Source of the DNA: a virus
Strand: one strand, 5' to 3'
DNA: 41,494 bases
Virus record (IMG/VR): IMGVR_UViG_3300045988_005695
Positions within the stretch are counted from its first letter, which is position 1. Each line of letters opens with the position of its first letter. Made by a program: the position numbers and the translations under genes. Shown one piece after another: positions 5,318 to 35,303 of this stretch. The notes below the pieces were generated by a model. The model was not told where the DNA came from. It saw only the letters and a program-made list of their open reading frames with translations, and searched no databases.

Positions 5318-6132
5318 ATGATAACTGCATTTGCGCGCATTTATACGGAGACGGTAGCAGGGATTGTAGGTTAAGAGCAGAGTACATCCGCTGCAACCGC
5401 GCCGAGGAATGCTCTGCCTATAAAAATGGAAAGTGTTTTTGCGTAACAACACTATTTGGCGTCAGATGCCCAAACGGTGAGATCACAATTGTGGATGGTG
5501 GAACAAAACAGTCAAAGAAGTTTTTACGGGTTCAGAAAGAAGCCCGAACAAATCCCGCTTACGGGAAATTACGATATCCATCAACCAATTTGATTACACG
5601 CATAGGAGAAGACGCTTTCCTCACCGTTCCTTATACATGGTTGGAGGAATTTGGCGGGGAAATCCGTTGCGATAACCCGCATCTTGGCACTAACAGACTG
5701 TACATAAGCGCCGATAAACTCACGCCTGAAAACATTAAGAGAATTTGCGATTTTATCCCGCGCGCAATAATGGGCGGCGTCATTCGGGATTATCAGGACA
5801 AAACCGTTCCGATGTTTTTGCATCAGCTACGGGGTTTATTCCCGGAAAAGTATGCAGCATTCCAGGAAGCGTATCCTGATTACAAAATCAAAGCTCCGGA
5901 TTGGAAGGGACGATGGGCAAAGCTTTCAACCTGCAACAGGAATGCAGAGTACAAGGACTGCCACAAAAACACGTTCCGTTTTGATGGAGACTACATTGTA
6001 TGCGACTGCTATAACTCGTCATTTGCGCCATTTTGTGCAAAACGGGCAGAAATCCGGGTGAAACTATCGGACGAAATGGAGGTGGAGATCACAGACAACT
6101 TACAAGTTACTGATGAAACTGTTTTTTTATGA
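5314..6132 (+). CDS. Hypothetical protein, Cys-rich N-terminus
   Basis: 272-aa ORF with an ATGA-coupled start. Confidence 0.6.
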   Translation: MNDNCICAHLYGDGSRDCRLRAEYIRCNRAEECSAYKNGKCFCVTTLFGVRCPNGEITIVDGGTKQSKKFLRVQKEARTNPAYGKLRYPSTNLITRIGEDAFLTVPYTWLEEFGGEIRCDNPHLGTNRLYISADKLTPENIKRICDFIPRAIMGGVIRDYQDKTVPMFLHQLRGLFPEKYAAFQEAYPDYKIKAPDWKGRWAKLSTCNRNAEYKDCHKNTFRFDGDYIVCDCYNSSFAPFCAKRAEIRVKLSDEMEVEITDNLQVTDETVFL

Positions 6133-6165
6133 GATTTTTAGATTAGCAAGGGGGGTAAAGCTGCA

Positions 6166-6501
6166 ATGGCAAATATCACGGCGACATGCCCGGTTTGTGG
6201 GAAAATATTCACCCGGCCCTGCAAGCCGCGCGCGGATGGCCGGTATCTCTGCAGCCGGGCATGTGCAGGGGCATGGCGCAAACTGCATCCCATCTGCACG
6301 GGCAAGCGGCGCGATCGCGCATGGGATGAGGTACGGGTCCAGATCACGGCGATCATCCCGGTCTATCCCGCCATGCGTCCGCGCATGGGCGAAGTGTACG
6401 ACGCGGAAAAATATGAATACGTCAGCAGCATGCCCGGATATGTTGTGCGCGTCGGAGACAAACGGGTCTGTGTGAGGGTAGACGAATGCAGGGAGATTTA
6501 A
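6166..6501 (+). CDS. Zinc-ribbon hypothetical protein
   Basis: CPVCG ... CSRAC. Confidence 0.55.
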   Translation: MANITATCPVCGKIFTRPCKPRADGRYLCSRACAGAWRKLHPICTGKRRDRAWDEVRVQITAIIPVYPAMRPRMGEVYDAEKYEYVSSMPGYVVRVGDKRVCVRVDECREI

Positions 6502-6719
6502 GAATCAGCCCATATTCCGCTCCGTGCGGCGACTGTCCCGAAAAGGGCTGCGGGGCAAAGCATACGACCTGCGAGGCGTACATAGCGTTCCGCAAGGCTG
6601 CGGACGAGTACAACAAAAGCAAGGTAGAGCGCATAGAGCGCGGGATGGAAACAATCGGCAAGTCCGCCAGAGCGCGGAAATACGATCGGGCAAAACGCGA
6701 AGGGAGGGTACACTATTGA
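6486..6719 (+). CDS. Hypothetical protein
   Basis: ORF overlapping its neighbours at both ends. Confidence 0.5.
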   Translation: MQGDLRISPYSAPCGDCPEKGCGAKHTTCEAYIAFRKAADEYNKSKVERIERGMETIGKSARARKYDRAKREGRVHY

Positions 6720-7168
6720 TGGAACAGATCAAGGGCGCAAAGTACGACGATGGGAAGCCGAGGCCGTCGCTCGTGCCGGTAGAGGCGATCGAGGCGATCA
6801 TGCAGGTGCGGGAGTTTGGAAAGGCAAAATACGCCGACGCGGAGGACTGGCGCAAGGTGCCGCGCGAGAAGTGGCTGGACGCCCTTCTGCGCCACGTTCT
6901 GCATATGTGGGATAATTCGATGCATATCGACGAAGAATCCGGCCTGCCGTCTCTGTGGCATGTTATAACTAATGCTGCGTTTCTGTGCGCGGCGTACAAA
7001 GATGAACTGGACAAAGCGCGCGGGGAATGGGCAAAGGATGTGCTGGACGAAAAGGCAGTTGATGGGTGCGAGAACTCACAATGTGCGTATTCCTCTACCA
7101 CATGCGGGTGTATCCGGTATAATGATGTAAGCCACTGCAAGAAAAGGAAGGGAGTGCGCCGTGAGTAA
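6719..7168 (+). CDS. dATP/dGTP diphosphohydrolase N-terminal-domain-like (MazG-related) protein
   Basis: KYDDGKPRPSLVPVEAIEAIMQVREFGKAKY ... LLRHVLHMW ... ESGLPSLWHVITNAAFL matches this domain pattern. TGATG-coupled start at 6719. Confidence 0.6.
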   Translation: MEQIKGAKYDDGKPRPSLVPVEAIEAIMQVREFGKAKYADAEDWRKVPREKWLDALLRHVLHMWDNSMHIDEESGLPSLWHVITNAAFLCAAYKDELDKARGEWAKDVLDEKAVDGCENSQCAYSSTTCGCIRYNDVSHCKKRKGVRRE

Positions 7169-7451
7169 GCCGCGCTACGGCTGGTGGCCATATGCAAAGT
7201 GGATGATCCGCAACTATAAGGGCGGCGGGCTGATGACGAAGGCCGAGCGCGCTGCCGTTGAGGAGGCAATCGCGGAGACGGAACAGCTCGTTGACGGCGC
7301 GGAGCGACTCCGGATCATAGACTTGGTTCTTTGGAAGCGGACGCACATGCTGCAGGGGGCCGCGCTAGCGTGCTACGTCTCGGAGCGTACTGCGCAGGAG
7401 TGGCACAGGCAATTTATTCGCCTTGTGGGGCAAAAAAGAGGGCTTTTATGA
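7161..7451 (+). CDS. Late-gene transcriptional activator-like protein (RinA / sigma region 4-type HTH)
   Basis: Last gene before the packaging module. C-terminal HTH-like GAALACYVSERTAQEWHRQFIRLV. Confidence 0.5.
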   Translation: MSKPRYGWWPYAKWMIRNYKGGGLMTKAERAAVEEAIAETEQLVDGAERLRIIDLVLWKRTHMLQGAALACYVSERTAQEWHRQFIRLVGQKRGLL

Positions 7452-7492
7452 AAAAGTCTGCGCCCCAGAGCCAAATTTAACATTTACTATAA

Positions 7493-7522
7493 GGGCGTAG
7501 AGACCAACTCTACGCCCTTTTT
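7493..7522 (+). terminator. Rho-independent terminator
   Basis: GGGCGTAGAG-ACCAA-CTCTACGCCC followed by TTTTT. Confidence 0.65.
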
Positions 7523-7561
7523 CATCGGCACCGCAGCGTCCTGCGGAAACCTCCTCCTCCT

Positions 7562-7619
7562 GTTCTCGTGTTCTCCGGTGTGAATAAATATATTTATTCA
7601 CACACGGAGACACGAGAAC
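7562..7619. repeat. 58-bp imperfect palindrome centred on AATAAATATATTTATT
   Basis: GTTCTCGTGTTCTCCGGTGTGAATAAATA / TATTTATTCACACACGGAGACACGAGAAC. The arms match except for small indels. Confidence 0.8.
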
Positions 7620-7646
7620 GAAAGAATGAGGCAGAAAGGAGCGGCT

Positions 7647-7883
7647 ATGGCGAGTTTGCGCGCCCTTGCACACAAGCTGCAAACAGCGCTCTTGTACAAC
7701 GGAATCAAAATAAAAATCAATCAAATGCAGACTTATTCCGCAAAAAATGACAGGATGGTGACGAAATACATGGTTTACGAATATCGACCTGATGAAAAGC
7801 CGAAGAACGTCACTCTGCTGGAAACGTACCAGATTGCGGATGTGGTGAAGCTGCTGGCCGGACTTTACAGCGATGGCGGATGA
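7647..7883 (+). CDS. Hypothetical protein upstream of terminase
   Basis: AAAGGAG RBS at 7635-7641 precedes the ATG at 7647. The ORF maximum starts at 7626. Confidence 0.5.
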   Translation: MASLRALAHKLQTALLYNGIKIKINQMQTYSAKNDRMVTKYMVYEYRPDEKPKNVTLLETYQIADVVKLLAGLYSDGG

Positions 7884-8289
7884 AAAGCTTACGCCGAAGC
7901 AGAAACGATTCTGCGAAGAATATTTAAAATCCGGCAATGCCACAGAAGCGGCGAAAAAAGCAGGGTATAAAGAAAAGGCAGCGCACAGCATGGGCGCGGA
8001 AAACCTTAGAAAACCTGCAATTTCTGCATATATCAAGCGCAGAACGGACGAACAAGAGGCTGCGCTTGTCGCAGATTCCAACGAAATTCTGAAATTTTAC
8101 ACTGCGGTCATGCGCGGGGAGGTCAAAGACCAGTTCGGCATGGACGCATCGCTGTCCGACCGGTTGAAAGCCGGTGACAGTCTTATGAAACGCTACGCAG
8201 CTGCTTCCGACCGCAACAGGACGACAATGGAGAAGCTTGACTCGATGCTGAAGGAGTTCCAAGATGCTGTTAAGTCCGAAACAACGTGA
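7873..8289 (+). CDS. terS: Terminase small subunit
   Basis: LTPKQKRFCEEYLKSGNATEAAKKAGY is the classic TerS HTH. It lies directly upstream of the large subunit. Confidence 0.85.
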   Translation: MADEKLTPKQKRFCEEYLKSGNATEAAKKAGYKEKAAHSMGAENLRKPAISAYIKRRTDEQEAALVADSNEILKFYTAVMRGEVKDQFGMDASLSDRLKAGDSLMKRYAAASDRNRTTMEKLDSMLKEFQDAVKSETT

Positions 8290-9520
8290 ATTTGTAAAAT
8301 ACGGGACGCATCGATGGAACTTCAAGGGCGGAGCCACCAGAAGTGGGAAGACTTACCTCGATTTTCGATGGATCATACCGATCCGGATTCGTGAGCGAAT
8401 CGGGAAAGATGGTCTGGCCGTCATTCTCGGCGTAACAAAATCCACGATTGAGCGAAATGTGCTGGAGCCGATGCGGAACATTTACGGGGACGAGCTTGTC
8501 GGCACGATCTCAAGCGACAATACGTCATGGATATTCGGAGAGAAATGTTACTGCCTCGGCGCCGAGAAGGTTTCCCAAGTTTCCAAGATTCGCGGTGCGT
8601 CGATTAAATATTGCTATGGGGACGAAGTAGCTGATTGGTCGGAAGAAGTATTCGCGCTGCTGAAAAGCCGCCTTGACAAAGAATACTCCTGTTTCGATGG
8701 GACATACAATCCGCAGTATCCGAATCACTGGCTGAAAAGATTCTTGGACAGTGACGCGGACATTTTCAGCCAAACATACACGATAGACGATAACCCCTTT
8801 TTGCCGTCTGCGTTTGTAGAAAATCTGAAACGCGAGTACGAAGGAACCGTTTACTATGATCGCTACATCCGTGGGATCTGGGTAGCCGCGGAGGGTATTG
8901 TTTACAAGGACTTTGCTAACGACACAGAAAAGTATCTGATTGATGATCCTATAAAATGGGCGGAAGAAAACGATACAAAATTTTCTGTTATTTCCATTGG
9001 CGTTGACTTCGGTGGAACGAAGTCTGCAACGAAATTTCAAGCTACCGGGATTACAAAAGATTTCCGGGTTGTGGCGTTGGAAGAAGAATACATCAAAAAC
9101 GAAGAAATTGACCCAGATGCGTTAAACCGGCGTTTTGCTACGTTCTGTCAACTGATAACATCAAAGTATGGTTACAGCCAGACACGAGCGGATAGCGCGG
9201 AAACGGTGCTTATACGAGGTCTAGATCACACGGCGCAAAAACTCCGGCTGGGTACCCAGGTCAAGAACGCGCTGAAAATGCAGATCACAGACAGGATCAG
9301 GCTTGTCGTGCTTCTGATGAAGCAAGGCAGGCTCAAGGTTTCGCGGAACTGCCCGCATTTGATCGATGCGTTCCAATCAGCCATTTATGACCCGGATAAG
9401 TTCGAGGACGAGCGTCTTGACGATGGGACATCCGATATTGATAGCCTCGATGCGTTTGAGTACAGTATAGAGCCTTATTACAAAGACCTGGAACGCGCCG
9501 GGCATATGATAGGACGGTGA
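8264..9520 (+). CDS. terL: Terminase large subunit (PBSX/XtmB-like)
   Basis: Walker A GGATRSGKT. Size and position fit. A nuclease-half acidic motif is present. Confidence 0.92.
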   Translation: MLLSPKQREFVKYGTHRWNFKGGATRSGKTYLDFRWIIPIRIRERIGKDGLAVILGVTKSTIERNVLEPMRNIYGDELVGTISSDNTSWIFGEKCYCLGAEKVSQVSKIRGASIKYCYGDEVADWSEEVFALLKSRLDKEYSCFDGTYNPQYPNHWLKRFLDSDADIFSQTYTIDDNPFLPSAFVENLKREYEGTVYYDRYIRGIWVAAEGIVYKDFANDTEKYLIDDPIKWAEENDTKFSVISIGVDFGGTKSATKFQATGITKDFRVVALEEEYIKNEEIDPDALNRRFATFCQLITSKYGYSQTRADSAETVLIRGLDHTAQKLRLGTQVKNALKMQITDRIRLVVLLMKQGRLKVSRNCPHLIDAFQSAIYDPDKFEDERLDDGTSDIDSLDAFEYSIEPYYKDLERAGHMIGR

Positions 9521-27450: not shown

Positions 27451-27750
27451 ATGAAAAAACTGTTTATCTCTCAGCCTATGAAGGGAAAGACCAACGAGGA
27501 AATTCGGAAAGAACGTGAAGATGCGGTCTTCTGCGCAAAGGAGCTGATGGGCGATGAAATCGAAGTGATTGACAGCTTCTTTGAAAACGTTCCGGCGGAG
27601 GCAAGGCCACTGTGGTATCTTGGCGAATCGCTGAAACTGCTGTCTACGGCTGACGTTGCGTACTTCGCCTCCGGTTGGAAGAACGCCCGCGGCTGCAAGA
27701 TCGAGCATATCTGCGCGGAACAGTACGGCATCAACATCGTGGAAGCGTGA
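27451..27750 (+). CDS. DUF4406 / nucleoside 2-deoxyribosyltransferase-like protein
   Basis: LFISQPMKGKT ... LLSTADVAYFASGWKNARGCKIEHICAEQYGINIV fits the DUF4406 pattern. Confidence 0.5.
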   Translation: MKKLFISQPMKGKTNEEIRKEREDAVFCAKELMGDEIEVIDSFFENVPAEARPLWYLGESLKLLSTADVAYFASGWKNARGCKIEHICAEQYGINIVEA

Positions 27751-27765
27751 AAGGAGTAATTACAT

Positions 27766-27990
27766 ATGGAAAACATCAAGAAGCGGCTCGGCAATCTGCT
27801 GAGCGTCAAATCCATCGTTACACTTGGCCTGACCATCATCTTCGCCGTCCTCGCCCTGCGGGGCGATATCTCCGGCAAGGACTTCCTGACCATCTTCCTG
27901 ACGGTCATCACCTTCTACTTCGGCACGCAGAGCCAGAAGGTGCAGGACGCTATCGAGGGCGGAAGCACGAAGGAGGATGCGCAGAAATGA
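27766..27990 (+). CDS. Holin (two TM segments)
   Basis: 74 aa with two hydrophobic helices and a charged C-terminus. ATGA-coupled to the endolysin. Confidence 0.55.
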   Translation: MENIKKRLGNLLSVKSIVTLGLTIIFAVLALRGDISGKDFLTIFLTVITFYFGTQSQKVQDAIEGGSTKEDAQK

Positions 27991-28685
27991 GTGTCATGAA
28001 AGCGTCTGAACTCGTCAAAAAGCATATCGACGTCGCGAAAAACTACAAGACCGTCTACATGTGGGGCTGCTTCGGCTCGCCGGTGGGCGAGGGTATTATT
28101 TCCGAGAAAGCGAAGCAGTACCCGGACTGGTACACTGCAGCGAAGCAGGCCAGATACCGCGGCCTCATCGGCAAGGGATACTTTGGCTTTGACTGTGTGA
28201 ACCTGACAAAGGGCATCCTATGGGGCTGGAAGGGCGACAAGAGCGCCTACCACGGCGGCGCGCGCTATGCCGGAAACGCCGTCCCGGACGTCTCTGCCGA
28301 CGGCATGATCGCCAAGTGCAAGGACGTATCGTCCACCGGCTGGGATAAACTCGTGCCGGGCGAAGGCCTGTGGATGCCCGGGCATTGGGGCCTGTACATC
28401 GGCGACGGTCTGGCCGTTGAGTGCACGCCCATCTGGGAAGACGGCGTGCAGATCACTTGTGTTGGCAACATCGGCCTCAAAGGAGGCTACAACAGCCGCA
28501 AGTGGCAGAAACACGGGAAACTGCCGTGGGTCGACTACGACACCGAAACGGTTGACAAGACCGTCGAGGACGCCAAGAAGACCATCAAGGCAAAGGCCGG
28601 TCTCACCGACAACACCATCAAGTATCTCGCCGACTACAAGTACGGCGAAGATCTGCTGAAAAAACTGGCTGCAGCCATGAAGTAA
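27987..28685 (+). CDS. Endolysin, NlpC/P60-like cysteine peptidase
   Basis: GFDCVNLTKGILWG (Cys) and PGHWGLYIGDG (His). Start ATG at 27987. The ORF extension back to 27675 is spurious. Confidence 0.65.
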   Translation: MSVMKASELVKKHIDVAKNYKTVYMWGCFGSPVGEGIISEKAKQYPDWYTAAKQARYRGLIGKGYFGFDCVNLTKGILWGWKGDKSAYHGGARYAGNAVPDVSADGMIAKCKDVSSTGWDKLVPGEGLWMPGHWGLYIGDGLAVECTPIWEDGVQITCVGNIGLKGGYNSRKWQKHGKLPWVDYDTETVDKTVEDAKKTIKAKAGLTDNTIKYLADYKYGEDLLKKLAAAMK

Positions 28686-28698
28686 GGGGGGCGGGCCT

Positions 28699-28947
28699 AT
28701 GTCACCGCAGGCGCGCGCTAAGCTGCCGCCGGAGCTGGGCGGCCTGACGCGGAAGGACATGGAAGCCGTGATCTATCAGGCCAATCTCGGCCGCGAGAAC
28801 GCGCAGATTGCGCAGCTCTATTTCGTGGATAAGCTCCCGCAGGTTGATGTTGCGACAGAACTGTATCTCGGCCGCGCCACCGTGCAGCGGCGCTTGCCGG
28901 AGATCATGGCGAGGATGAAAGCCGCGTCCGGGAATCTCCCGAGCTGA
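28699..28947 (+). CDS. Sigma-70 region 4-like HTH protein
   Basis: NAQIAQLYFVDKLPQVDVATELYLGRATVQRRL resembles sigma region 4. Confidence 0.5.
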   Translation: MSPQARAKLPPELGGLTRKDMEAVIYQANLGRENAQIAQLYFVDKLPQVDVATELYLGRATVQRRLPEIMARMKAASGNLPS

Positions 28948-29033
28948 ACAAAAGTGATGCCGGTCTGATGCACAACTGAGGCACAAGGAATCGAAAAAAA
29001 GCCCATACTGGACACATCAAAGGAGTGTTCGGT

Positions 29034-29420
29034 ATGGGCTTTTCTTATTTCAATCCAAATCCCACCGGGCGGCAGGTCGGTGACTGCACCGTTCGAGCAA
29101 TCGCAAAGGCGACGGGAAATAGCTGGGATGAAACATATATCGGGCTGTGCTTGCAAGGCCTAATCTTGGGCGATCTTCCGAGTGCGAACAGTGTCTGGGG
29201 TGCGTACCTCCGGCAGCAGGGATTTACCCGGAACGTTGTGCCGGACACCTGCCCCGACTGCTACACGGTTGGTAAGTTTGCCGACGAGCACCCGCGTGGA
29301 ACGTATATTCTCGCCCTCTCCGGTCATGTGGTCTGCGTGCAGGATGGTGTAATTTACGACAGTTGGAACAGCGAGAACGAAATCCCGCTTTATTACTGGG
29401 TCAAAGAAACGGAGGAATAA
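29034..29420 (+). CDS. Hypothetical protein, possible papain-like Cys/His fold
   Basis: AAAGGAG RBS lies 8 nt upstream. GDCTVRAI (Cys), SGHVVCV (His) and DSWN are present. Confidence 0.4.
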   Translation: MGFSYFNPNPTGRQVGDCTVRAIAKATGNSWDETYIGLCLQGLILGDLPSANSVWGAYLRQQGFTRNVVPDTCPDCYTVGKFADEHPRGTYILALSGHVVCVQDGVIYDSWNSENEIPLYYWVKETEE

Positions 29421-29422
29421 AC

Positions 29423-29866
29423 ATGGCATATCCCTATTTCAATCCTTATTATCCGCAGCCGATGCCAGATAACCTCATGCAGATGCGGCAGATGCAGCAG
29501 CCACAGATGCAGCCCATGCAGCAGCCTATGCCGCAGCCAGTGCAACAGAACCCCATTGCGCAGGGCGGTGTGCAGTGGGTCAATGGCGAGCAAGAGGCGA
29601 GAGGTTATCTCATCGCGCCCAACTCTGCCGTTGCTCTGTGGGATTCCAGCGCGCCGACGGTGTACCTCAAACAGTCCGACGCAAGCGGCAAGCCGACGCT
29701 AAAGATTTATGACCTCGTAGAACGCGCAGAAACGGCTTCTAACGCGCCGCAAAAGCCGGGCGTGGAATTTGTCACCCGCGAGGAGTTTGACCGTCTGGCG
29801 GCGCTTGTAGGCGAAATAAAGGGCAAGAAGAAGCGCAAGGTTGAGGAGGACGAGGACGATGAATAA
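29423..29866 (+). CDS. Q/P/M-rich low-complexity protein with a globular C-terminal domain
   Basis: GGAGGA RBS. N-terminus YPQPMPDNLMQMRQMQQPQMQPMQQPMPQPVQQ. Poly-K/E tail. Confidence 0.5.
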   Translation: MAYPYFNPYYPQPMPDNLMQMRQMQQPQMQPMQQPMPQPVQQNPIAQGGVQWVNGEQEARGYLIAPNSAVALWDSSAPTVYLKQSDASGKPTLKIYDLVERAETASNAPQKPGVEFVTREEFDRLAALVGEIKGKKKRKVEEDEDDE

Positions 29867-30059
29867 TCCCTTTTTCGGTGCGCTCGGCGGCGGGAACGGC
29901 TTTATGCAAATGATGCAGCAGTTTCAGCAATTCAAGGCAAATTTTCAGGGCGACCCCAAAGCGGAGGTCGAAAAGCTCTTGCAAAGCGGCAAACTCTCGC
30001 AGGCGCAGTTAAACCAGCTACAGCAGATGGCAAAGCAATTCCAAAGTCTGATGCAATAA
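29859..30059 (+). CDS. Small Q-rich protein
   Basis: MNNPFFGALGGGNGFMQMMQQFQQFK...QLNQLQQMAKQFQSLMQ. Confidence 0.45.
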   Translation: MNNPFFGALGGGNGFMQMMQQFQQFKANFQGDPKAEVEKLLQSGKLSQAQLNQLQQMAKQFQSLMQ

Positions 30060-30142
30060 TTAAATATTTATAGCGTTTTCTTTAATTCTTTATCGTGGCC
30101 ACGATTTAGATAAAACTGACTTTAATTCAAAGGAGTGATACT

Positions 30143-30919
30143 ATGTCTCTTTCTGACGGCGGCGTTCAGGCCACTATGCCTGTTGCGCCAACCGGCATGA
30201 TGAACAGCGGCTTTGGCGGCTTCGGCGGCGATGGCGCGTGGTGGATCATCATTCTTTTCCTGTTTGTTTTCTGCGGCTGGGGAAACAACGGCTGGGGAAA
30301 CAACGGCAACAGCGGTGCTGCTGACAATTACGTCCTTGCAAGCGATTTTGCCACTCTTCAGCGCCAGATCGACAGCGCAGCATCGACGATCGAACGTAAA
30401 AGCGACATTACGCAGCAGGGCATCTGCGATGGCTTCTACTCCATGAACACTACGCTGCTGAACGGCTTTGCGGGCGTCAATCAGAACATGAACAGCGGTT
30501 TCCAGAATGCCGAGCTTTCCCGCTGCAACCAGCAGGCAGCTCTCATGCAGCAGCTCAACGCCATGCAGATGCAGGCCGCAGATTGCTGCTGCGAAAACCG
30601 TGCAGCTATCGCCCAGGTGCGCTACGACATGGCGACGCAGGCGTGCGACACGCGCAACACCGTGCAGAACGCCACGCGCGACATCATTGACGCGAACAAC
30701 CAGAACAGCCGCGCCATCCTCGACTTCCTGACGCAAAGCAAGCTGTCCGACCTCCAGACCGAGAATCAGAATCTGAAGCTGGCGGCATCTCAGGCCGCGC
30801 AGAACAACTATCTGATCTCGCAGCTGCGTCCGTGCCCTTCGCCTGCCTACATTACTTGTAACCCGTGGGCAGGCAGCGGTTACGGCGGCTGTGGCTGCAA
30901 TCAGGGTTGTGGCTGCTGA
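30143..30919 (+). CDS. Membrane protein with Gly-rich N-terminus, N/Q-rich coiled coil and Cys/Gly-rich C-terminus
   Basis: AAAGGAG RBS. GFGGFGGDGAWWIIILFLFVFCGWGNNGWGNNG is a TM segment. An internal CCC is present. The C-terminus is GSGYGGCGCNQGCGC. Confidence 0.6.
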   Translation: MSLSDGGVQATMPVAPTGMMNSGFGGFGGDGAWWIIILFLFVFCGWGNNGWGNNGNSGAADNYVLASDFATLQRQIDSAASTIERKSDITQQGICDGFYSMNTTLLNGFAGVNQNMNSGFQNAELSRCNQQAALMQQLNAMQMQAADCCCENRAAIAQVRYDMATQACDTRNTVQNATRDIIDANNQNSRAILDFLTQSKLSDLQTENQNLKLAASQAAQNNYLISQLRPCPSPAYITCNPWAGSGYGGCGCNQGCGC

Positions 30920-30988
30920 CAACTGCATAGCATAGCTTTTTCGTGACCTCACGAAAATGGTCGGCCCCGTGCCGATACTAACAACAAC

Positions 30989-31023
30989 GCGGCGGGGCAA
31001 TAGCCCTGCCGCTGTATTTTTAT
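30989..31023 (+). terminator. Rho-independent terminator
   Basis: GCGGCGGGGC-AATA-GCCCTGCCGC followed by TGTATTTTTAT. Confidence 0.6.
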
Positions 31024-31038
31024 GAAAGGAATGATTTT

Positions 31039-31461
31039 ATGGCTGAATTTACATCATCCGGGATTCAAACTGTCACCGCTGGGCAGAACGTCCCTCTGAT
31101 CTCCACGGCGGCTTGTGGAAAGCCGTGCATCGTACATCGCGAAGGCAGCGGGCTCGTTACGCTGCGCGGGCTTACGCAGCAATGCAAGGCGAAGTTCCGC
31201 GTATCATTTGGCGCGAATATCGCCGTCCCTACAGGCGGAACAGTAGGTGCCATTACCGCTGCGCTCGCAATCAACGGCGAACCTCTGAGCAGCGCCACAG
31301 CGACCGTAACCCCTGCGGCTGTTGAGAACTATTTCAACTTCTTCGTTTCCACATTCGTGGAAGTCCCGCGCGGCTGCTGCCTGACTGTAGCGGCGAAGAA
31401 CACCAGCGCGCAGGCGGTCAGTTTCGCAAATAGCAATATGATCGTCGAGCGCGTATCGTGA
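31039..31461 (+). CDS. TNF/C1q-like jelly-roll protein resembling the BclA C-terminal domain
   Basis: The alternating beta pattern, ALAINGEPLSSATATV, and the ending NSNMIVERV resemble the BclA-C family layout. No collagen repeats are present. Confidence 0.45.
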   Translation: MAEFTSSGIQTVTAGQNVPLISTAACGKPCIVHREGSGLVTLRGLTQQCKAKFRVSFGANIAVPTGGTVGAITAALAINGEPLSSATATVTPAAVENYFNFFVSTFVEVPRGCCLTVAAKNTSAQAVSFANSNMIVERVS

Positions 31462-31475
31462 AAGGAGGATGCAAT

Positions 31476-31847
31476 ATGTACGATTTGAGAAACCTGCGTG
31501 AAATGCTCTGCAAGGAGCTTGACGAAATCGCCGCCAAGCGCGAAATGTCTGTGGGAGATCTGGACGCGATCCAGAAGCTGACGAGTTCCATCAAGAATAC
31601 CTACAAGATCGAGATGGCTGAAGACGGCGGCTATTCCCGCGATAGCGAGTGGGAGGCGGATATGCGCGGTACTTACGGCCGGGGCAGCTCTTACCGTGGC
31701 CGCCGCCGTGACGCAATGGGCCGCTATACCCGCGCTGATGCCCGCGAGCATATGCGCGCGCAGCTGGACGATATGATGCGCGACGCGGATGACGATAAAA
31801 CCCGTGACGCGATCCGGCGCTGCATGGAGCAGATCGAGCGGGCATAA
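31476..31847 (+). CDS. Hypothetical charged protein (Arg/Asp-rich)
   Basis: AAAGGAGG RBS, then the ATG at 31476. Confidence 0.5.
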   Translation: MYDLRNLREMLCKELDEIAAKREMSVGDLDAIQKLTSSIKNTYKIEMAEDGGYSRDSEWEADMRGTYGRGSSYRGRRRDAMGRYTRADAREHMRAQLDDMMRDADDDKTRDAIRRCMEQIERA

Positions 31848-31858
31848 GGAGGCGCGAT

Positions 31859-32215
31859 ATGCTGGATAAAGCCGAGATCCGCAAGGAGATAGCGCGGCTG
31901 GAATATGAGGAATCCAGCTATCCAAACTATGCCAAACTCGCGAATCTGTACACGATCCGCAAGCAGATGCAGGAGGAAGAACAGGGCGCGCAAAACATAG
32001 CCGCTTTTGCTTATTCCGGCGATCCTGCACCAGCCCCTGTTTCCGAGCAGCCAGAAACAATAAGTGAGTACGGTGATAGCGATTTCCTGCGCACCGTAGC
32101 CGGAAAGGATCCTGCACGCGTCTGGCCAATCATGGACGAGTTGATGGATACAGTATTGCTTGTCAAGCGAAGCGTGTATGATTCCGTTATGCGGAAGATA
32201 TCCGATACAAGATAA
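31859..32215 (+). CDS. Hypothetical protein
   Basis: AGGAGG lies upstream. Last + strand ORF before attP. Confidence 0.5.
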   Translation: MLDKAEIRKEIARLEYEESSYPNYAKLANLYTIRKQMQEEEQGAQNIAAFAYSGDPAPAPVSEQPETISEYGDSDFLRTVAGKDPARVWPIMDELMDTVLLVKRSVYDSVMRKISDTR

Positions 32216-32240: not shown

Positions 32241-32299
32241 AAAAGCAAGAAAAACCGTTGAAATTACTGCGTTTTTTATTGAATGGGGTTCAAGAGGCC

Positions 32300-32327
32300 G
32301 CTGGTTCGAATCCAGTCACTCGGACCA
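32300..32327 (+). other. 3' fragment of a tRNA (T-arm, acceptor 3' strand, ACCA) = probable attP core
   Basis: GCTGG-TTCGAAT-CCAGT-CACTCGG-A-CCA. No matching 5' acceptor strand (CCGAGTG) occurs upstream, so this is not a complete tRNA. Confidence 0.65.
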
Positions 32328-32344
32328 ATGTAAAACGGGAAAAG

Positions 32345-32375
32345 CCCTGAAACTGCAAAGGTTTCAGGGTTTTTT
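32345..32375 (+). terminator. Rho-independent terminator downstream of the tRNA fragment
   Basis: CCCTGAAAC-TGCAAAG-GTTTCAGGG followed by TTTTTT. Confidence 0.65.
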
Positions 32376-32427
32376 CTTTTCTTCTCCGTAAAGGAAAAAT
32401 CACGCCAGATTTCGAGAAATCACGCTG

Positions 32428-32460: not shown

Positions 32461-33579
32461 CTAGATCGCGTTTATGATTTTCTTCAAGTCTTCCAGATTC
32501 ACGTCTTGGTAGTACCGGAGCATCTCAGGGCTTGCGTGGCCGATCAATTTCATTTTATCCTTGTCGGGCGCAACAACTTTTTTCATCAATGTCGCGAATG
32601 TGTGCCTGCATGTATGCGGCGAATATTTGTGGATTCCGTTTACCATTGGGTTTTCAATGCCGACGGCTTCTAGTGTGGGGTAAAAAACAGCGTCCCGGAA
32701 TCTATCATAGGAAAATTGGTTACCTTTTTCATCGCAGAACAACGCGCTGGACGCTTTTCCTGCGTAAAGACGATCAATAATGGGCTGGATCTTCGGGCTG
32801 ATGGGAACGACACGATTTTTTCCAGCCTCCGTTTTCGCACCACCGGTCAGCGTTTTTTTATTCGCATCGTAGCTGTCAACGCTCAGGGCCAGCAGTTCTG
32901 ACGGTCTGAAGCCGAGATAGCACATTGCATAAATATAATCCGCGAACGGAATTACGCCGACAGCGTCTCGTATTCTTTCAATCTGTTCTTGCGTAAAGCT
33001 TTCCCTCGCCGCTCCGAACTCTCCGCTGACAATCAGATATTGCCCTAAATTCAGTTCTGCGTAGCCGCGCGGAACTGCGTACTTGTACATAAGCCCTGCT
33101 AACGCTTTCATGTTTTCTTTTGTTCTTCTTCCTCTCGGGCATTCGTCCATGCATTCCTGCAAATCATCTATTTCTATATCTTCCAGTTTCCAGAACTCAA
33201 CTTGATAAAAGTATTTTTCGGCTGATTTGTAGCAATCAATTGTGGATTTCCCGGCTCTGTGAGTGGGGAGCCACATTTCGTAGAGTTCACGCCATGTAAT
33301 TGCTTTTTCACGCTTCTTCTGCCCGGCCAACATCGGCAGGTAGTCAAGCGCTTCTTTTTTTGTGCGGAATCCGCATTTCCGAGCGACAACGCGCTTTACA
33401 GATCCGTTTTCTTCTCGGTATCCCTTTGTTATTTCCGCTACCCATTTATCGTTGCGCCGGTATACCGAGCCCGTGCCGTTCCCGCGCTTTGTGGCCCTTT
33501 TTGTTTGCTGTTTTTTTCCGCACCAGCAACAGTAGGGCGCGCCGTCGGGGATTTCTTTTTTACACTTGATGCACTCCAT
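32461..33579 (-). CDS. int: Tyrosine recombinase / integrase with N-terminal zinc ribbon
   Basis: MECIKCKKEIPDGAPYCCWCG. C-terminal HTCRHTFAT ... LIGHAS ... LRYY. The ORF maximum start is 33609. Confidence 0.9.
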   Translation of the reverse strand: MECIKCKKEIPDGAPYCCWCGKKQQTKRATKRGNGTGSVYRRNDKWVAEITKGYREENGSVKRVVARKCGFRTKKEALDYLPMLAGQKKREKAITWRELYEMWLPTHRAGKSTIDCYKSAEKYFYQVEFWKLEDIEIDDLQECMDECPRGRRTKENMKALAGLMYKYAVPRGYAELNLGQYLIVSGEFGAARESFTQEQIERIRDAVGVIPFADYIYAMCYLGFRPSELLALSVDSYDANKKTLTGGAKTEAGKNRVVPISPKIQPIIDRLYAGKASSALFCDEKGNQFSYDRFRDAVFYPTLEAVGIENPMVNGIHKYSPHTCRHTFATLMKKVVAPDKDKMKLIGHASPEMLRYYQDVNLEDLKKIINAI

Positions 33580-34135
33580 GTTTCCCCCCACGTTCTTTTC
33601 GGATTGCATAGAAAGTAATTGCCGAAGCCAGCGCTGAACCTACAATCAGGGCAATGCAACCCCATGCAGCTACGGACAAATCTCCGTCGCGAATGAGACC
33701 TACGCTCCGAATCTGTGCATCCGTCGCAAGGCAGGCAATCAGAGAAAAAGAGAGCAGCATACAAAACAGGGCGAGAACGTAACACATTGTATGTGTAGAC
33801 CTTATCTGTGCGCTCTGCGCGGCTGTTGTTGCCTCCAGCTTGGCGTTTTTGATCTCGACATGATGAATCTGCTTGGTCAGTTCTTCCGGGATTTCTGCGG
33901 GTTTGACAAGCCCGCACAGCTCATCCAGCGACAGCCCGAGAACGCGGCATAGCGCGGCAGAATTGTACAGTTTCGGGTCTTGCTGTGTTCCTGCGCAGAG
34001 CTTCGTCACAGCCGATCTGGAAACGCCGGATTCTTCGACAAGCCTGTCGATGGTGTAATGCTGATCTTCCTTCGCCCGCTTTATGTTCCTCTGATATGCA
34101 GAAAGATATGGGGCGAGTTCCTGAATCGCCGACAT
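33560..34135 (-). CDS. Membrane-anchored XRE-family HTH regulator
   Basis: TIDRLVEESGVSRSAVTKLCAG is an HTH. Two C-terminal TM segments. GGAGG RBS. Confidence 0.7.
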   Translation of the reverse strand: MSAIQELAPYLSAYQRNIKRAKEDQHYTIDRLVEESGVSRSAVTKLCAGTQQDPKLYNSAALCRVLGLSLDELCGLVKPAEIPEELTKQIHHVEIKNAKLEATTAAQSAQIRSTHTMCYVLALFCMLLSFSLIACLATDAQIRSVGLIRDGDLSVAAWGCIALIVGSALASAITFYAIRKERGGKHGVHQV

Positions 34136-34431: not shown

Positions 34432-34614
34432 ATGCAGAGCATCAATATTCGCTTTGAAAACGGGAAAGTAAACATCATCGTCGACGGCGCGCTGTTTCGG
34501 GATGTGCATAGTCTCAGCCTTGATTATATCAAGGGGCTGCCTATGCTATTTTCCTGCGTCTCAGATGTGGGTGAGGAGCATGACAAACGGCGGGAGCCGC
34601 GGATCCTGCACTAG
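34432..34614 (+). CDS. Small hypothetical protein
   Basis: GGAGG lies 8 nt upstream of the ATG at 34432. It is an isolated + strand ORF in the lysogeny module. Confidence 0.3.
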   Translation: MQSINIRFENGKVNIIVDGALFRDVHSLSLDYIKGLPMLFSCVSDVGEEHDKRREPRILH

Positions 34615-35303
34615 TCATAGTACTCCATGCGCATAGACGGTATTGTGACCTGGTTGCCAAGCACAGCAATATAAGTTTGCACGCCCTTGCATTCACCGTA
34701 GCACGTGATCTGATCGTTCTCCAAAATGCGGCTTTCTCCTTCTGGCCTTGAGTATGTTACATACCAGATCCCAAAAGGTGTTTGCACGCGAAGCGTGACG
34801 GAGTTCAGGAATCCCTCTTGAACTTCAATGACGGTTCCGCTTATTACAACTTTTCTCCCCTTGTAATCGTCCGGATCTCTTGAAATCGCGGAATAAGAAA
34901 GATCCTCACATTGCGCGATGTATTCTTCGCGAGATAGCTCTTTCGGCTTGTCTTCTTCGCTTGCAAGTACATACTCGGTGCCTGTGTTCTCCGTTTGCTT
35001 TTCGAGTTCGTTTTTTGGGTCATAGTTTTGCGACGAAGATGGAGATACCGAAATCATGCTTGATAAGCTGACAACACACAGAGCGCACAGAATCGCGACA
35101 AGCACTTTTCCGAGCGGGGACAACTTCTTTTTGTTTTTCGCTCCGCAAGCCGGGCAACGCTTTACCTTCGCGTTGATCTGCGCACCGCACGTCTTGCATA
35201 CGATTTTTCTGTTCAGAGTCTGACAGTACGGGCAGAATTTCTCTCTTTCGTCAAACTCTTCCCCGCACCGCGGGCAGGTTACGTGATAGATCTGCTTCTG
35301 CAT
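34611..35303 (-). CDS. Zinc-ribbon / single-TM membrane protein with an extracytoplasmic domain (candidate superinfection exclusion)
   Basis: CPRCG..CPYC..CKTCG..CPACG, then TM LGKVLVAILCALCVVSLSSMI, then a beta-rich domain. GGAGGG RBS. AT-richer than the flanking DNA. Confidence 0.6.
   Translation of the reverse strand: MQKQIYHVTCPRCGEEFDEREKFCPYCQTLNRKIVCKTCGAQINAKVKRCPACGAKNKKKLSPLGKVLVAILCALCVVSLSSMISVSPSSSQNYDPKNELEKQTENTGTEYVLASEEDKPKELSREEYIAQCEDLSYSAISRDPDDYKGRKVVISGTVIEVQEGFLNSVTLRVQTPFGIWYVTYSRPEGESRILENDQITCYGECKGVQTYIAVLGNQVTIPSMRMEYYD

Follow-up and report, generated by a model that had tools for sequence, protein, structure and literature searches.

What unites eight small genes that lie, all in one direction, between the endolysin gene and the attachment site of a phage genome, and do they serve the phage or the bacterium that carries it? 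The question is raised by positions 28699 to 32215 of IMG/VR virus record IMGVR_UViG_3300045988_005695, a stretch of 41,494 nucleotides (hereafter the window) that constitutes a circularly permuted, complete temperate siphophage genome. An earlier note on this DNA had described the genes, here called g1 to g8, as an accessory island in the position classical for lysogenic conversion, and had proposed that it remodels the surface of the host cell or its spores. We consider it very probable that g2 to g8, usually found behind a small helix-turn-helix (HTH) gene, are a dispensable cassette of phages of gut anaerobes that most likely acts in lytic growth, and are not host-conversion cargo.

Eight co-oriented open reading frames (ORFs) were located where the earlier note had placed them, on the plus strand between the endolysin and the integrase with its attP, and a Shine-Dalgarno-like sequence precedes every one of them. 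The features of this region are as follows (aa, amino acids).

27987-28685: endolysin, matching PHROG 'endolysin' (E=1.5e-11)
28699-28947, plus strand: g1, 82-aa HTH protein of the sigma-70 region-4/KorA type, a candidate regulator ahead of the cassette
29034-29420, plus strand: g2, 128 aa, divergent papain-like Cys-His-Asp protein (phrog_3754)
29423-29866, plus strand: g3, 147 aa (phrog_21718), with a Y/P/Q/M-rich N-terminus, a conserved central domain and an acidic helical tail
29859-30059, plus strand: g4, 66 aa, small Q/M-rich helical protein (phrog_22984)
30143-30919, plus strand: g5, 258 aa, the signature protein (phrog_16490)
31039-31461, plus strand: g6, 140 aa, TNF/C1q-type jelly roll (phrog_20016)
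31476-31847, plus strand: g7, 123 aa, with helical ends and a central low-complexity stretch rich in R/G/S/Y-D
31859-32215, plus strand: g8, 118-aa acidic helical protein with the motif YGDS(D/E)F...DELM(D/E)T
32461-33609, minus strand: tyrosine integrase, 3' of the cassette

Independent gene calls on four public contigs with an identical g5 contain the same eight genes (82, 128, 147, 66-70, 258, 140, 123 and 114-123 aa for g1 to g8). For g2, the ribosome-binding-site context fits the ATG at 29034 better than a GTG at 29025. With a G+C content of 0.55-0.59, against roughly 0.47-0.61 elsewhere in the window, the composition of the island resembles that of the remainder of the phage. Because g1 starts 13 bases past the stop of the endolysin gene, the late genes and the cassette are probably transcribed together.

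Scans of all eight proteins against Pfam, NCBIfam and PADLOC gave nothing above the curated cut-offs, the PADLOC-DB models reaching chance-level matches only (E >= 0.015). Strong PHROG matches were obtained for g2 to g6 and weak ones for g7 and g8, every family being of unknown function. The literature on the carrier phages, on the crAss 'spike protein', on DUF7841, on phage BclA/C1q proteins and on the B. uniformis host strain held no account of the cassette that we could find. As the earlier note had suspected, the combination of g1 to g8 fits no described system.

We fetched 182 loci, comprising human-gut phages resembling that of the window, prophages in metagenome-assembled genomes of Oscillospiraceae and rumen phages related to Butyrivibrio phage Ceridwen, and identified the cassette genes with iterated profiles; many of these loci are cut by contig ends. 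Profile matches were found for g5 in 179 loci, for g6 in 172, for g2, g3 and g7 in 163 each, for g4 in 155 and for g8 in 132. The order g2-g3-g4-g5-g6-g7-g8 is kept in about 160 of the 182 loci, across the two distant clades of human-gut and rumen phages, with two permuted exceptions. Since this order recurs in roughly 160 independent viral loci, the eight-gene arrangement lies far beyond chance, and the expectation that the genes travel together is borne out for g2 to g8, with g1 more loosely attached.

The g5 family extends beyond these loci. Homologues are encoded by the Clostridium perfringens phages CPD1, XP41-N3, 17DYC, HMD-PC1, PMQ04 and CPQ4, by many crAss-like Suoliviridae (as 'spike protein' or 'viral fiber' in the depositors' naming), by the cultured Bacteroides uniformis phage C3_41T2LP and by two viruses assigned in database records to Methanomassiliicoccales hosts. 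In the latter two, vir335 (locus L100, Caudoviricetes sp., 5650-6573) and vir215, the phrog_16490 genes adjoin tail-fibre-like genes. In the crAss-like phage cr115_1 (locus L098, 1586-6631), several genes including the g5 homologue have in-frame stops under the standard bacterial code, consistent with stop-codon recoding, which is known in some crAss-like phages. Genes resembling g3, g4 and g8 are also kept by the C. perfringens phages. The Bacteroidota phages have analogues by make-up, namely a small, beta-rich-looking, Cys-bearing protein directly after g5, an R/G/D/Y-rich protein, a DUF7841 protein and a protein that looks beta-rich in its N-terminal half and ends in a coiled coil; no sequence relation of these to g6 or g8 was detectable. 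Nearly all sequences that match g5 in a collection of 50,697 phage genomes originate from gut bacteria, faeces or the rumen (a mouse sample of unspecified tissue accounts for one), a gut-only distribution that is confounded with host taxonomy.

The evidence that bears most directly on conversion comes from Ceridwen, in which g2 to g8 directly follow the endolysin gene. Ceridwen was judged virulent by its authors. It has no integrase or excisionase and has been seen in lytic growth only, and a lysogenic-conversion role for the cassette is difficult to reconcile with such a carrier, with the collinearity in about 160 loci, with the phage-like composition and with a g1 that abuts the endolysin gene. 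The one moron-like trait that we found is the loss of the cassette as a unit in phages of the phiCP13O type. Butyrivibrio fibrisolvens, the host of Ceridwen, and Bacteroides do not sporulate, so that remodelling of spores, the biology proposed by the earlier note, does not account for these carriers either. That proposal, a conversion module with its own regulator, could draw on the BclA/BxpB-type fold of g6, on the attP beside the cassette in this phage, on the Oscillospiraceae among the hosts of the window phage group, a family that includes spore formers, and on the Cys- and Gly-rich make-up without signal peptides that is typical of proteins of spore coats assembled in the mother cell. Against it, the cassette is carried by a lytic phage of a non-sporulating Butyrivibrio and g5 by phages of non-sporulating Bacteroidota, collagen-like repeats are absent, and Pfam and NCBIfam scans gave no match to CotY/ExsY, BclA_C or any other spore-coat family. 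Neither is there an export signal for a role on the surface of vegetative cells: g1 to g4 and g6 to g8, being without a hydrophobic segment, cannot reach the surface of a living cell. We regard the conversion proposal as extremely improbable.

The word 'accessory' in the earlier note has nevertheless stood up, as dispensability. The C. perfringens phages phiCP13O, 34O, 9O, 39-O and 26F match only about half of the module region of 17DYC, at ~96% identity, the cassette being cleanly absent between the matching flanks. Compared gene by gene (loci L189, 3455-6359, and L190, 1143-2516), phiCP13O lacks g3 to g5, the small protein that follows g5 and the small gene next in line, and has in their place a different stretch with another antirepressor gene. 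Its gp41, annotated as a 78-aa 'hypothetical protein', is what remains of the g8-like gene at the 3' end (94.6% identity over 92 aa), and phages of this type apparently lost the cassette by deletion. Because they are plaque-forming isolates, replication, assembly and lysis must be possible in the laboratory without the cassette. Such a loss recalls, by analogy, those of non-essential appendages such as the lambda side fibres, T4 fibritin and Hoc, and the phi29 head fibres.

Variation within the cassette is structured. Among 80 phages whose g6 and g7 are 96-99% and 90-99% identical to those of the window (IMG/VR loci L004-L083), g2, g3, g4 and g5 fall into two linked allele classes, one with identities to the window of about 92-96, 90, 77-82 and 98-100%, respectively, the other with 76-79, 37-46, 62 and 57-61%. 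Throughout these phages g8 is 61-71% identical and most integrases about 30-35%, and the sequences indicate that g8 and the integrase are swapped independently of the g2-g5 alleles. Many relatives that are collinear in other respects carry 0.5-2.5 kb of variable cargo at the g1|g2 junction (for example loci L002, at 6250-7916, L006 and L025), and it is this junction (28948-29033 in the window), not the cassette itself, that looks like the true cargo hot spot. Homing endonucleases of the HNH type have entered the cassette in at least four separate insertions: at the g4|g5 junction in Dulem virus 33 and CPD1, ahead of g5 in C3_41T2LP, and in Ceridwen at the g6|g7 junction. Although their insertion junctions differ, the endonucleases of CPD1 and Ceridwen share 44.5% identity (E=1e-40). 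The HNH/I-HmuI-type genes in or beside the cassette of four unrelated phages are:

L001, 8168-8719, minus strand
L097, 4047-4670
L099, 5006-5626
L084, 9518-10312

Two discrete, linked allele classes in otherwise near-identical phages are what might be expected of a membrane-located module for conflict with other phages or the host (superinfection exclusion, counter-defence or an exclusion toxin), in which the variable g2 to g5 would set specificity and the conserved g6 and g7 carry the effect. Gain or loss of the cassette as a unit, its dispensability, its proximity to the g1|g2 hot spot and the attachment site, and the repeated homing-endonuclease invasion would suit such a module, and a virulent carrier is no obstacle to it, given that T4, a virulent phage, has the membrane exclusion proteins Imm and Sp. 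Yet known exclusion and anti-defence genes are single, small and usually early or prophage-expressed, whereas a g1 abutting the endolysin gene suggests late expression; conflict genes turn over fast, and synteny across clades with only 30-45% identity would be unusual for them; and there was no PADLOC match and nothing resembling a nuclease, an NADase or a pore toxin. We therefore judge a conflict module unlikely. A conserved trimeric socket (g6, perhaps with g7) holding a variable stalk (g5) would fit the same allele pattern.

The signature protein g5 answers the description in the earlier note of a Gly-rich N-terminus, a hydrophobic segment, a helical region and a GCGCNQGCGC tail. An acidic, Gly-rich N-terminus leads into one hydrophobic anchor (Kyte-Doolittle 1.78 at residues 27-45), a Cys-bearing stalk with a helical periodicity of 3.6 residues between residues 59 and 236, and the Cys/Gly tail; the 13 cysteines include C95, CCC148-150 and C168, and the chain carries the motif ASQxAQNxYLxxQLRPxPxPAY. 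Full-length homologues share the Gly-rich/hydrophobic N-terminus, the CCC motif, an ASQxAQ...RPxPxPAY...NP motif and the GCGC tail. The family counts at least about 7,900 clusters at 90% identity and 1,797 at 50% identity (E<=1e-3), nearly all of 200-340 aa and with a single architecture, of which the hydrophobic segment with its Gly-rich flanks is the most conserved feature from Clostridia phages to crAss-like phages. Among the island proteins g5 alone has such a segment. Depositors label its homologues 'viral fiber' or 'spike'. A holin was rejected because g5 is too large and matches no holin family, and a bacteriocin or ranthipeptide precursor, which the tail might suggest, because the protein has 258 aa and no maturase accompanies it. 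A spanin was likewise set aside, as g5 has no lipoprotein partner and most hosts have a single membrane: no lipobox-bearing small ORF was called in or beside g5, and no spanin family of PHROG or Pfam was matched.

The cassette usually has its place behind the lysis genes. Upstream of it in 57 rumen loci, the closest large ORFs are for the most part endolysins, drawn from many unrelated PHROG families, together with holins; the lysin changes from phage to phage, and the cassette still follows the lysis genes. The cassette of Dulem virus 33 likewise follows the lysis genes, and in crAss cr115_1 the g5 block lies between holin/LysB-like genes and tail genes. In the C. perfringens phages the cassette is a few kilobases beyond the lysis genes, beside antirepressor and recombination genes, and in C3_41T2LP it is near recombination/replication genes. 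These positions raise the alternative of a membrane-anchored complex outside the virion, acting at the last stage of infection, in which g5 would sit in the cytoplasmic membrane, recruit g3, g4, g6, g7 and g8 and tune or complete lysis and egress. The recruitment would take place on the inner face of the membrane or once the holin has made its holes, with effects on, for instance, lysis timing, membrane break-up or release from debris. The near-invariance of the Gly-flanked hydrophobic segment of g5 favours a complex of this kind, as do the position of the cassette behind lysis genes in the window, Dulem virus 33, Ceridwen and the 57 rumen loci, the holin and LysB/FtsL-like genes beside the cassette in cr115_1, and the cytoplasmic membrane being the sole envelope layer common to all inferred hosts. 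Dispensability in the laboratory, as seen in the phiCP13O-like loss, is typical of accessory lysis genes, among them T4 rI and rIII. Position is nevertheless a weak argument, since the ends of late operons in Firmicutes siphophages always adjoin lysis genes; no similarity to holin, antiholin or spanin families was found in PHROG or Pfam; cr115_1 already has a separate spanin-like gene; and seven genes that include a TNF-like trimer and a peptidase far exceed any known lysis accessory. On balance we find a lysis or egress complex rather doubtful, though it is the main rival of the reading that we prefer.

The structural prediction for g6 bears out the earlier note, which had proposed a TNF/C1q-like jelly roll resembling the C-terminal domain of BclA. 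The AlphaFold2 (AF2) monomer model is an all-beta jelly roll (pLDDT, the predicted local distance difference test score, 77.6; predicted template-modelling (TM) score 0.72), compact, within the size of about 130-150 residues usual for this fold, and superposable on TNF, C1q and the BclA C-terminal domain. Foldseek against the Protein Data Bank (PDB) returned E values of 3e-6 to 5e-5 and TM scores of 0.65-0.75 to entries 9h38, 8d02, 1wck, 1rj7 and 4qq2, the top matches being the C-terminal domains of F-BclA and BclA, BxpB (TM 0.75), ExsFA, EDA-A1, 4-1BBL and C1q. The model also matches phage knobs (the phi812 central spike and the cyanophage A4 tail) and, in a library of viral structures, small phage proteins, some of them named 'BclA protein', C1q/collagen fibre tips and proteins labelled fibritin or tail fibre. 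A PDB sequence profile search with g6 gave nothing significant. The fold leads us to expect a trimer. Four cysteines are conserved (C30, C49, C113 and C114), and the family comprises at least 7,877 clusters at 90% identity. A BclA-type glycoprotein, in which an exosporium-targeting motif at the N-terminus and collagen-like GXX repeats precede the C-terminal domain, is not what the chain suggests: the jelly roll fills it entirely, and neither collagen nor BclA_C was matched in Pfam at E<1. An Ena-type spore pilus was rejected, there being no DUF3992 match and the top Foldseek matches being TNF-like.

A small, beta-rich-looking, Cys-bearing protein stands directly 3' of g5 not only in the window, where it is g6, but also in Ceridwen, CPD1, crAss cr115_1 and C3_41T2LP; in Dulem virus 39 a 76-aa gene intervenes between the two. 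Alignment with hhalign of the g6 profile to the small proteins after g5 in cr115_1 and CPD1 showed no relationship, and hence the 'g6 slot' is held there by other families.

For g2, a papain-like Cys/His protein had been suggested, and a confident model agrees. Residues N12, P13, D20, C21, R24, H101, D112 and W114 are invariant, C21, H101 and D112 being so in all 71 sequences of the alignment from which the AF2 model was built (pLDDT 91.9). DSSP assigns a helix to residues 21-30 and strands to 101-106 and 109-112, so that in the model a helix begins at C21, with H101 and D112 on neighbouring strands, the catalytic layout of papain-like enzymes. No Foldseek match was found at E<0.1, nor any sequence match in Pfam or the PDB; the best weak fold match is Josephin-2 (E=0.1, probability 0.77, TM 0.48), and AvrPphB, interpain, PaTox and CHAP, which follow, are all papain-like. 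Stand-alone homologues occur in Bacillus Tsamsa-like phages (annotated 'putative peptidase'), in Geobacillus GBK2 and in Lak megaphages. On this model g2 is apparently a new, minimal branch of the papain-like fold and a putative peptidase. The peptidase partner is exchanged non-homologously among carriers, an HExxH zincin taking its place in Dulem virus 39 and, in C3_41T2LP, a protein that the depositor named PolyVal metallopeptidase.

The compositions of the remaining proteins agree with the earlier descriptions of g3 and g4 as Q/M/P-rich and of g7 and g8 as charged. In g3 (12% Q, 11% P) the central domain appears beta-rich by eye, and a PDB sequence profile search gave nothing significant. 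The g4 protein (23% Q, 9% M) has a homologue in Ceridwen, and proteins of CPD1 and Dulem virus 39, related to each other, resemble it in make-up. With 25 K+R and 27 D+E in its 123 residues, g7 has analogues of like make-up in crAss gp42 (with an RGG tail), C3_41T2LP (7798-8031) and Dulem virus 39 (8435-9178). A homologue of g8 (15 K+R and 21 D+E in 118 residues) is present in Ceridwen, and in CPD1 and 17DYC it is fused to a g7-like N-terminus; a PDB profile search with g8 found nothing significant, hhalign showed no relationship of its profile to DUF7841, the partner in Bacteroidota phages, and tblastn of g3 and g8 against the phage collection returned unannotated gut-virome matches only.

Low complexity of this kind, Y/P/Q in g3, Q/M in g4 and R/G/S/Y with acidic blocks in g7, together with the analogues in Bacteroidota phages, might indicate a cytoplasmic scaffold or condensate of g3, g4 and g7, tethered to the membrane by g5 and, like phi29 p16.7, organising the phage DNA or the assembly of particles. 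Judged by its sequence, the Arg/Gly-rich g7 could bind nucleic acid, and in the C. perfringens and B. uniformis phages recombination/replication genes are near. The argument is purely compositional, however, with no DNA-binding fold detected; it leaves the TNF-like trimer, the conserved cysteines and the peptidase unexplained; and the usual place of the cassette is after the lysis genes, not among the early genes. We hold a condensate to be quite improbable.

How, then, might the cassette act in lytic growth? Our leading, if tentative, reading is that it specifies a protease-matured appendage, with g5 as a Cys-rich stalk and g6 as a TNF-like trimer, borne by particles or membrane fragments. 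The appendage would be built in the cytoplasm of the infected cell and laid out like the BclA/BxpB nap. In it, g5 would be a helical stalk with a Gly-flanked hydrophobic anchor at its N-terminus and a Cys-rich tip, and g6 a trimeric socket or knob of the TNF/C1q type. The Met/Gln-rich g3 and g4 would hold the hydrophobic end of g5 soluble, the papain-like g2 would trim a component (as the zincin would in other lineages), and g7 and g8 would serve as charged adaptors. Because g5 alone has a hydrophobic segment, assembly would be cytoplasmic, as for virions. The product would be a non-essential appendage on released virions or membrane fragments, with its benefit in the gut and not on the plate. 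What the sequences show is the order and spread of the genes, the g2 and g6 folds, the make-up of g5 and the fact that the cassette can be lost; contact between g5 and g6, the parts played by chaperones and protease, the late timing and the final location are inferred. The earlier note had stated that none of the proteins is a virion or lysis protein, which is more than sequence can decide, and a virion appendage is among the readings that we now put foremost.

Several observations weigh against this appendage. The cassette lies outside the head-tail block, and for all carriers its location and timing are ones that we infer. The 'coiled coil' of g5 is deduced from helical periodicity only, and a strongly hydrophobic segment of ~18 residues is unusual for a soluble phage fibre and points at least as much to a membrane protein. 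The knob of a receptor-binding fibre is usually its most variable part; g6, unlike such a knob, is the most conserved part of the cassette. Carriage by siphovirus-, podovirus- and possibly myovirus-type phages would need a common docking site, and the sole PHROG hint of a 'virion structural protein' is a coiled-coil match in a partner from a Bacteroides phage (E=1.4e-8).

Signals between the genes subdivide the cassette. The AT-rich gap, palindromes and terminator mentioned by the earlier note were located on the two sides of g5, and a second terminator closes the cassette.

30060-30142: g4|g5 gap, AT-rich (28% GC), holding the palindrome TCGTGGCCACGA at 30093-30104
30941-30954: second palindrome copy, TCGTGACCTCACGA, in the g5|g6 gap
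30989-31022, plus strand: terminator-like hairpin (30989-31012; 10 pairs, 9 of them G-C) and T-run between g5 and g6
32337-32377, plus strand: terminator-like hairpin closing the cassette, before the integrase

The palindrome, TCGTG-N-CACGA, occurs twice in the whole 41.5-kb window (0.39 copies expected), both times flanking g5. In 179 scanned loci (2.08 Mb), 162 of the 168 copies fall at these two positions, all in window-like loci, and the rumen clade has none. Its role may be that of an operator, perhaps one for g1, or of an RNA element. The hairpin between g5 and g6 is not kept in Ceridwen, whose g5-g6 gap is 12 bases.

The matches of g1 to region-4-type HTH domains, which the earlier note had noticed, are weak and consistent (Sigma70_r4, E=0.004; TIGR02937, E=8e-4; PHROG 'sigma factor', E=0.0014; in PDB profiles the SorC HTH, E=8e-4, and the KorA repressor HTH), and lie below the Pfam and NCBIfam family cut-offs. 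A sigma factor was rejected: with 82 aa, region-4-type matches only and region 2 absent, g1 is better regarded as an HTH regulator. In 34 rumen loci a different 88-aa ORF with a sigma-region-4-like HTH lies ~100 bp upstream of g2, and with two such genes, g1 and its rumen analogue, a small HTH gene ahead of the cassette is a recurring feature.

Elsewhere the window has the layout of a temperate siphophage, with small hydrophobic protein genes just upstream of the endolysin, and the CI-type repressor and early genes on the same strand as the integrase, opposite to the cassette.

8264: terminase
9525: portal
12928: capsid protein
17222: tape measure
24692: collar-domain tail fibre

The gap between g8 and the integrase contains a tRNA-3'-end-like sequence of the kind typical of attP: GGTTCAAGAGGCCGCTGGTTCGAATCCAGTCACTCGGACCA, at 32289-32330, resembles a tRNA T-arm with the 3' end of the acceptor, and is probably the core of an attP by which the phage integrates into a tRNA gene of its host; ARAGORN found no tRNA there. 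An Rfam scan gave no match inside the island. In the early/lysogeny region there is a full-length FuFi-1 RNA (RF02986; 36720-36943, minus strand; 96.3 bits against a gathering score of 59.6). An ORF of 99 aa at 27451-27750 (plus strand), set in the group of small hydrophobic genes that precedes the endolysin, has a match to PHROG 'nucleoside 2-deoxyribosyltransferase' (E=9e-18) and is odd company for lysis genes. The gene for a 230-aa double-zinc-ribbon (DZR) protein (34611-35303, minus strand) separates the repressor from the early genes, and relatives keep its position.

Taken together, the descriptions in the earlier note were good, but the biology that it proposed was wrong on the central point. 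For most gut-phage genes no role is known, and the cassette is a large and coherent piece of them: the seven-gene set recurs in phage genomes from human, primate, rodent, pig and rumen samples, and g5 crosses boundaries between Clostridia phages, crAss-like Bacteroidota phages and viruses assigned to gut archaea. It is conceivable, if speculative, that a g5-centred cassette is an undescribed phage apparatus, shared by viruses of such different hosts because it suits the anoxic gut of animals and not the envelope of a particular host, and that it is built on a new membrane-anchored protein family. It might, for instance, specify a protease-matured appendage rich in thiols that attaches particles to mucus or particulate matter, or that cross-links when exposed to oxygen and protects them between hosts. 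Were this true, a function directed at the gut environment rather than at a host envelope would be a new theme in phage ecology. Were the cassette a virion appendage or a lysis accessory, it would still bring families that are new: a papain-like peptidase of minimal size, a phage trimer resembling BxpB and an anchored stalk rich in Cys. The cassette is undescribed, very widespread and dispensable; a new kind of mechanism cannot yet be demonstrated from sequence alone, and cultured systems are at hand in Ceridwen and, as a natural plus/minus pair among the C. perfringens phages, in a carrier (17DYC or CPD1) set beside phiCP13O or phiCP39-O.

Known systems offer partial counterparts to each component. 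Like the clan CA peptidases (Josephin, YopT/AvrPphB, C39 and CHAP), g2 has its Cys where a helix begins, with an invariant Asn upstream, and its His and Asp on neighbouring strands, but it is minimal at 128 aa and has no significant fold match and no Pfam or PDB sequence match. The g5 protein resembles the spanins (Rz/Rz1) in being anchored at its N-terminus, in having conserved cysteines in a long helical domain and in its C-terminal, Pro-rich motif, and the cassette, like spanins and other lysis accessories, lies close to holin and endolysin genes. It differs in having no o-spanin lipoprotein and no match to spanin or holin families, in being carried by phages of single-membrane Clostridia, which have no outer membrane to fuse, and in that the crAss-like carrier of g5 has a separate LysB/FtsL-like gene.

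The exosporium of the Bacillus cereus group (BclA with BxpB, or ExsFA) and the tip and anchor of F-ENA provide the nearest structural relatives of g6, whose model superposes on the C-terminal domains of F-BclA and BclA, on BxpB and on an ExsF-peptide complex, although identity is 12-15% and no Pfam family is matched. BxpB, like g6, is a stand-alone TNF-like protein of about 140 aa. The cassette has no collagen-like repeats and no CotY/ExsY lattice protein, is phage-borne and occurs also in non-sporulating hosts; the BclA stalk is a collagen triple helix, whereas that of g5 is predicted to be helical with a hydrophobic anchor. By analogy with the nap, the Cys-rich partners, which have no signal peptides, would assemble in the cytoplasm, and the predicted filamentous partner, g5, likewise has a conserved N-terminal peptide.

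Phage appendages form the remaining comparison. Unlike these, the cassette stands outside the head-tail block, its putative stalk has a membrane-type hydrophobic segment, its putative knob is conserved, and its seven genes include those for a peptidase and low-complexity proteins. Its likeness to the PRD1 P5 spike, the phi29 head fibres, T4 fibritin and the lambda side tail fibres is that of a predicted stalk with a predicted trimeric knob, of the TNF/C1q type or another. Folds like that of g6 are carried by the tips of phage fibres and spikes, and the cassette, like the dispensable appendages of phages, is non-essential in the laboratory and deleted in some lineages.

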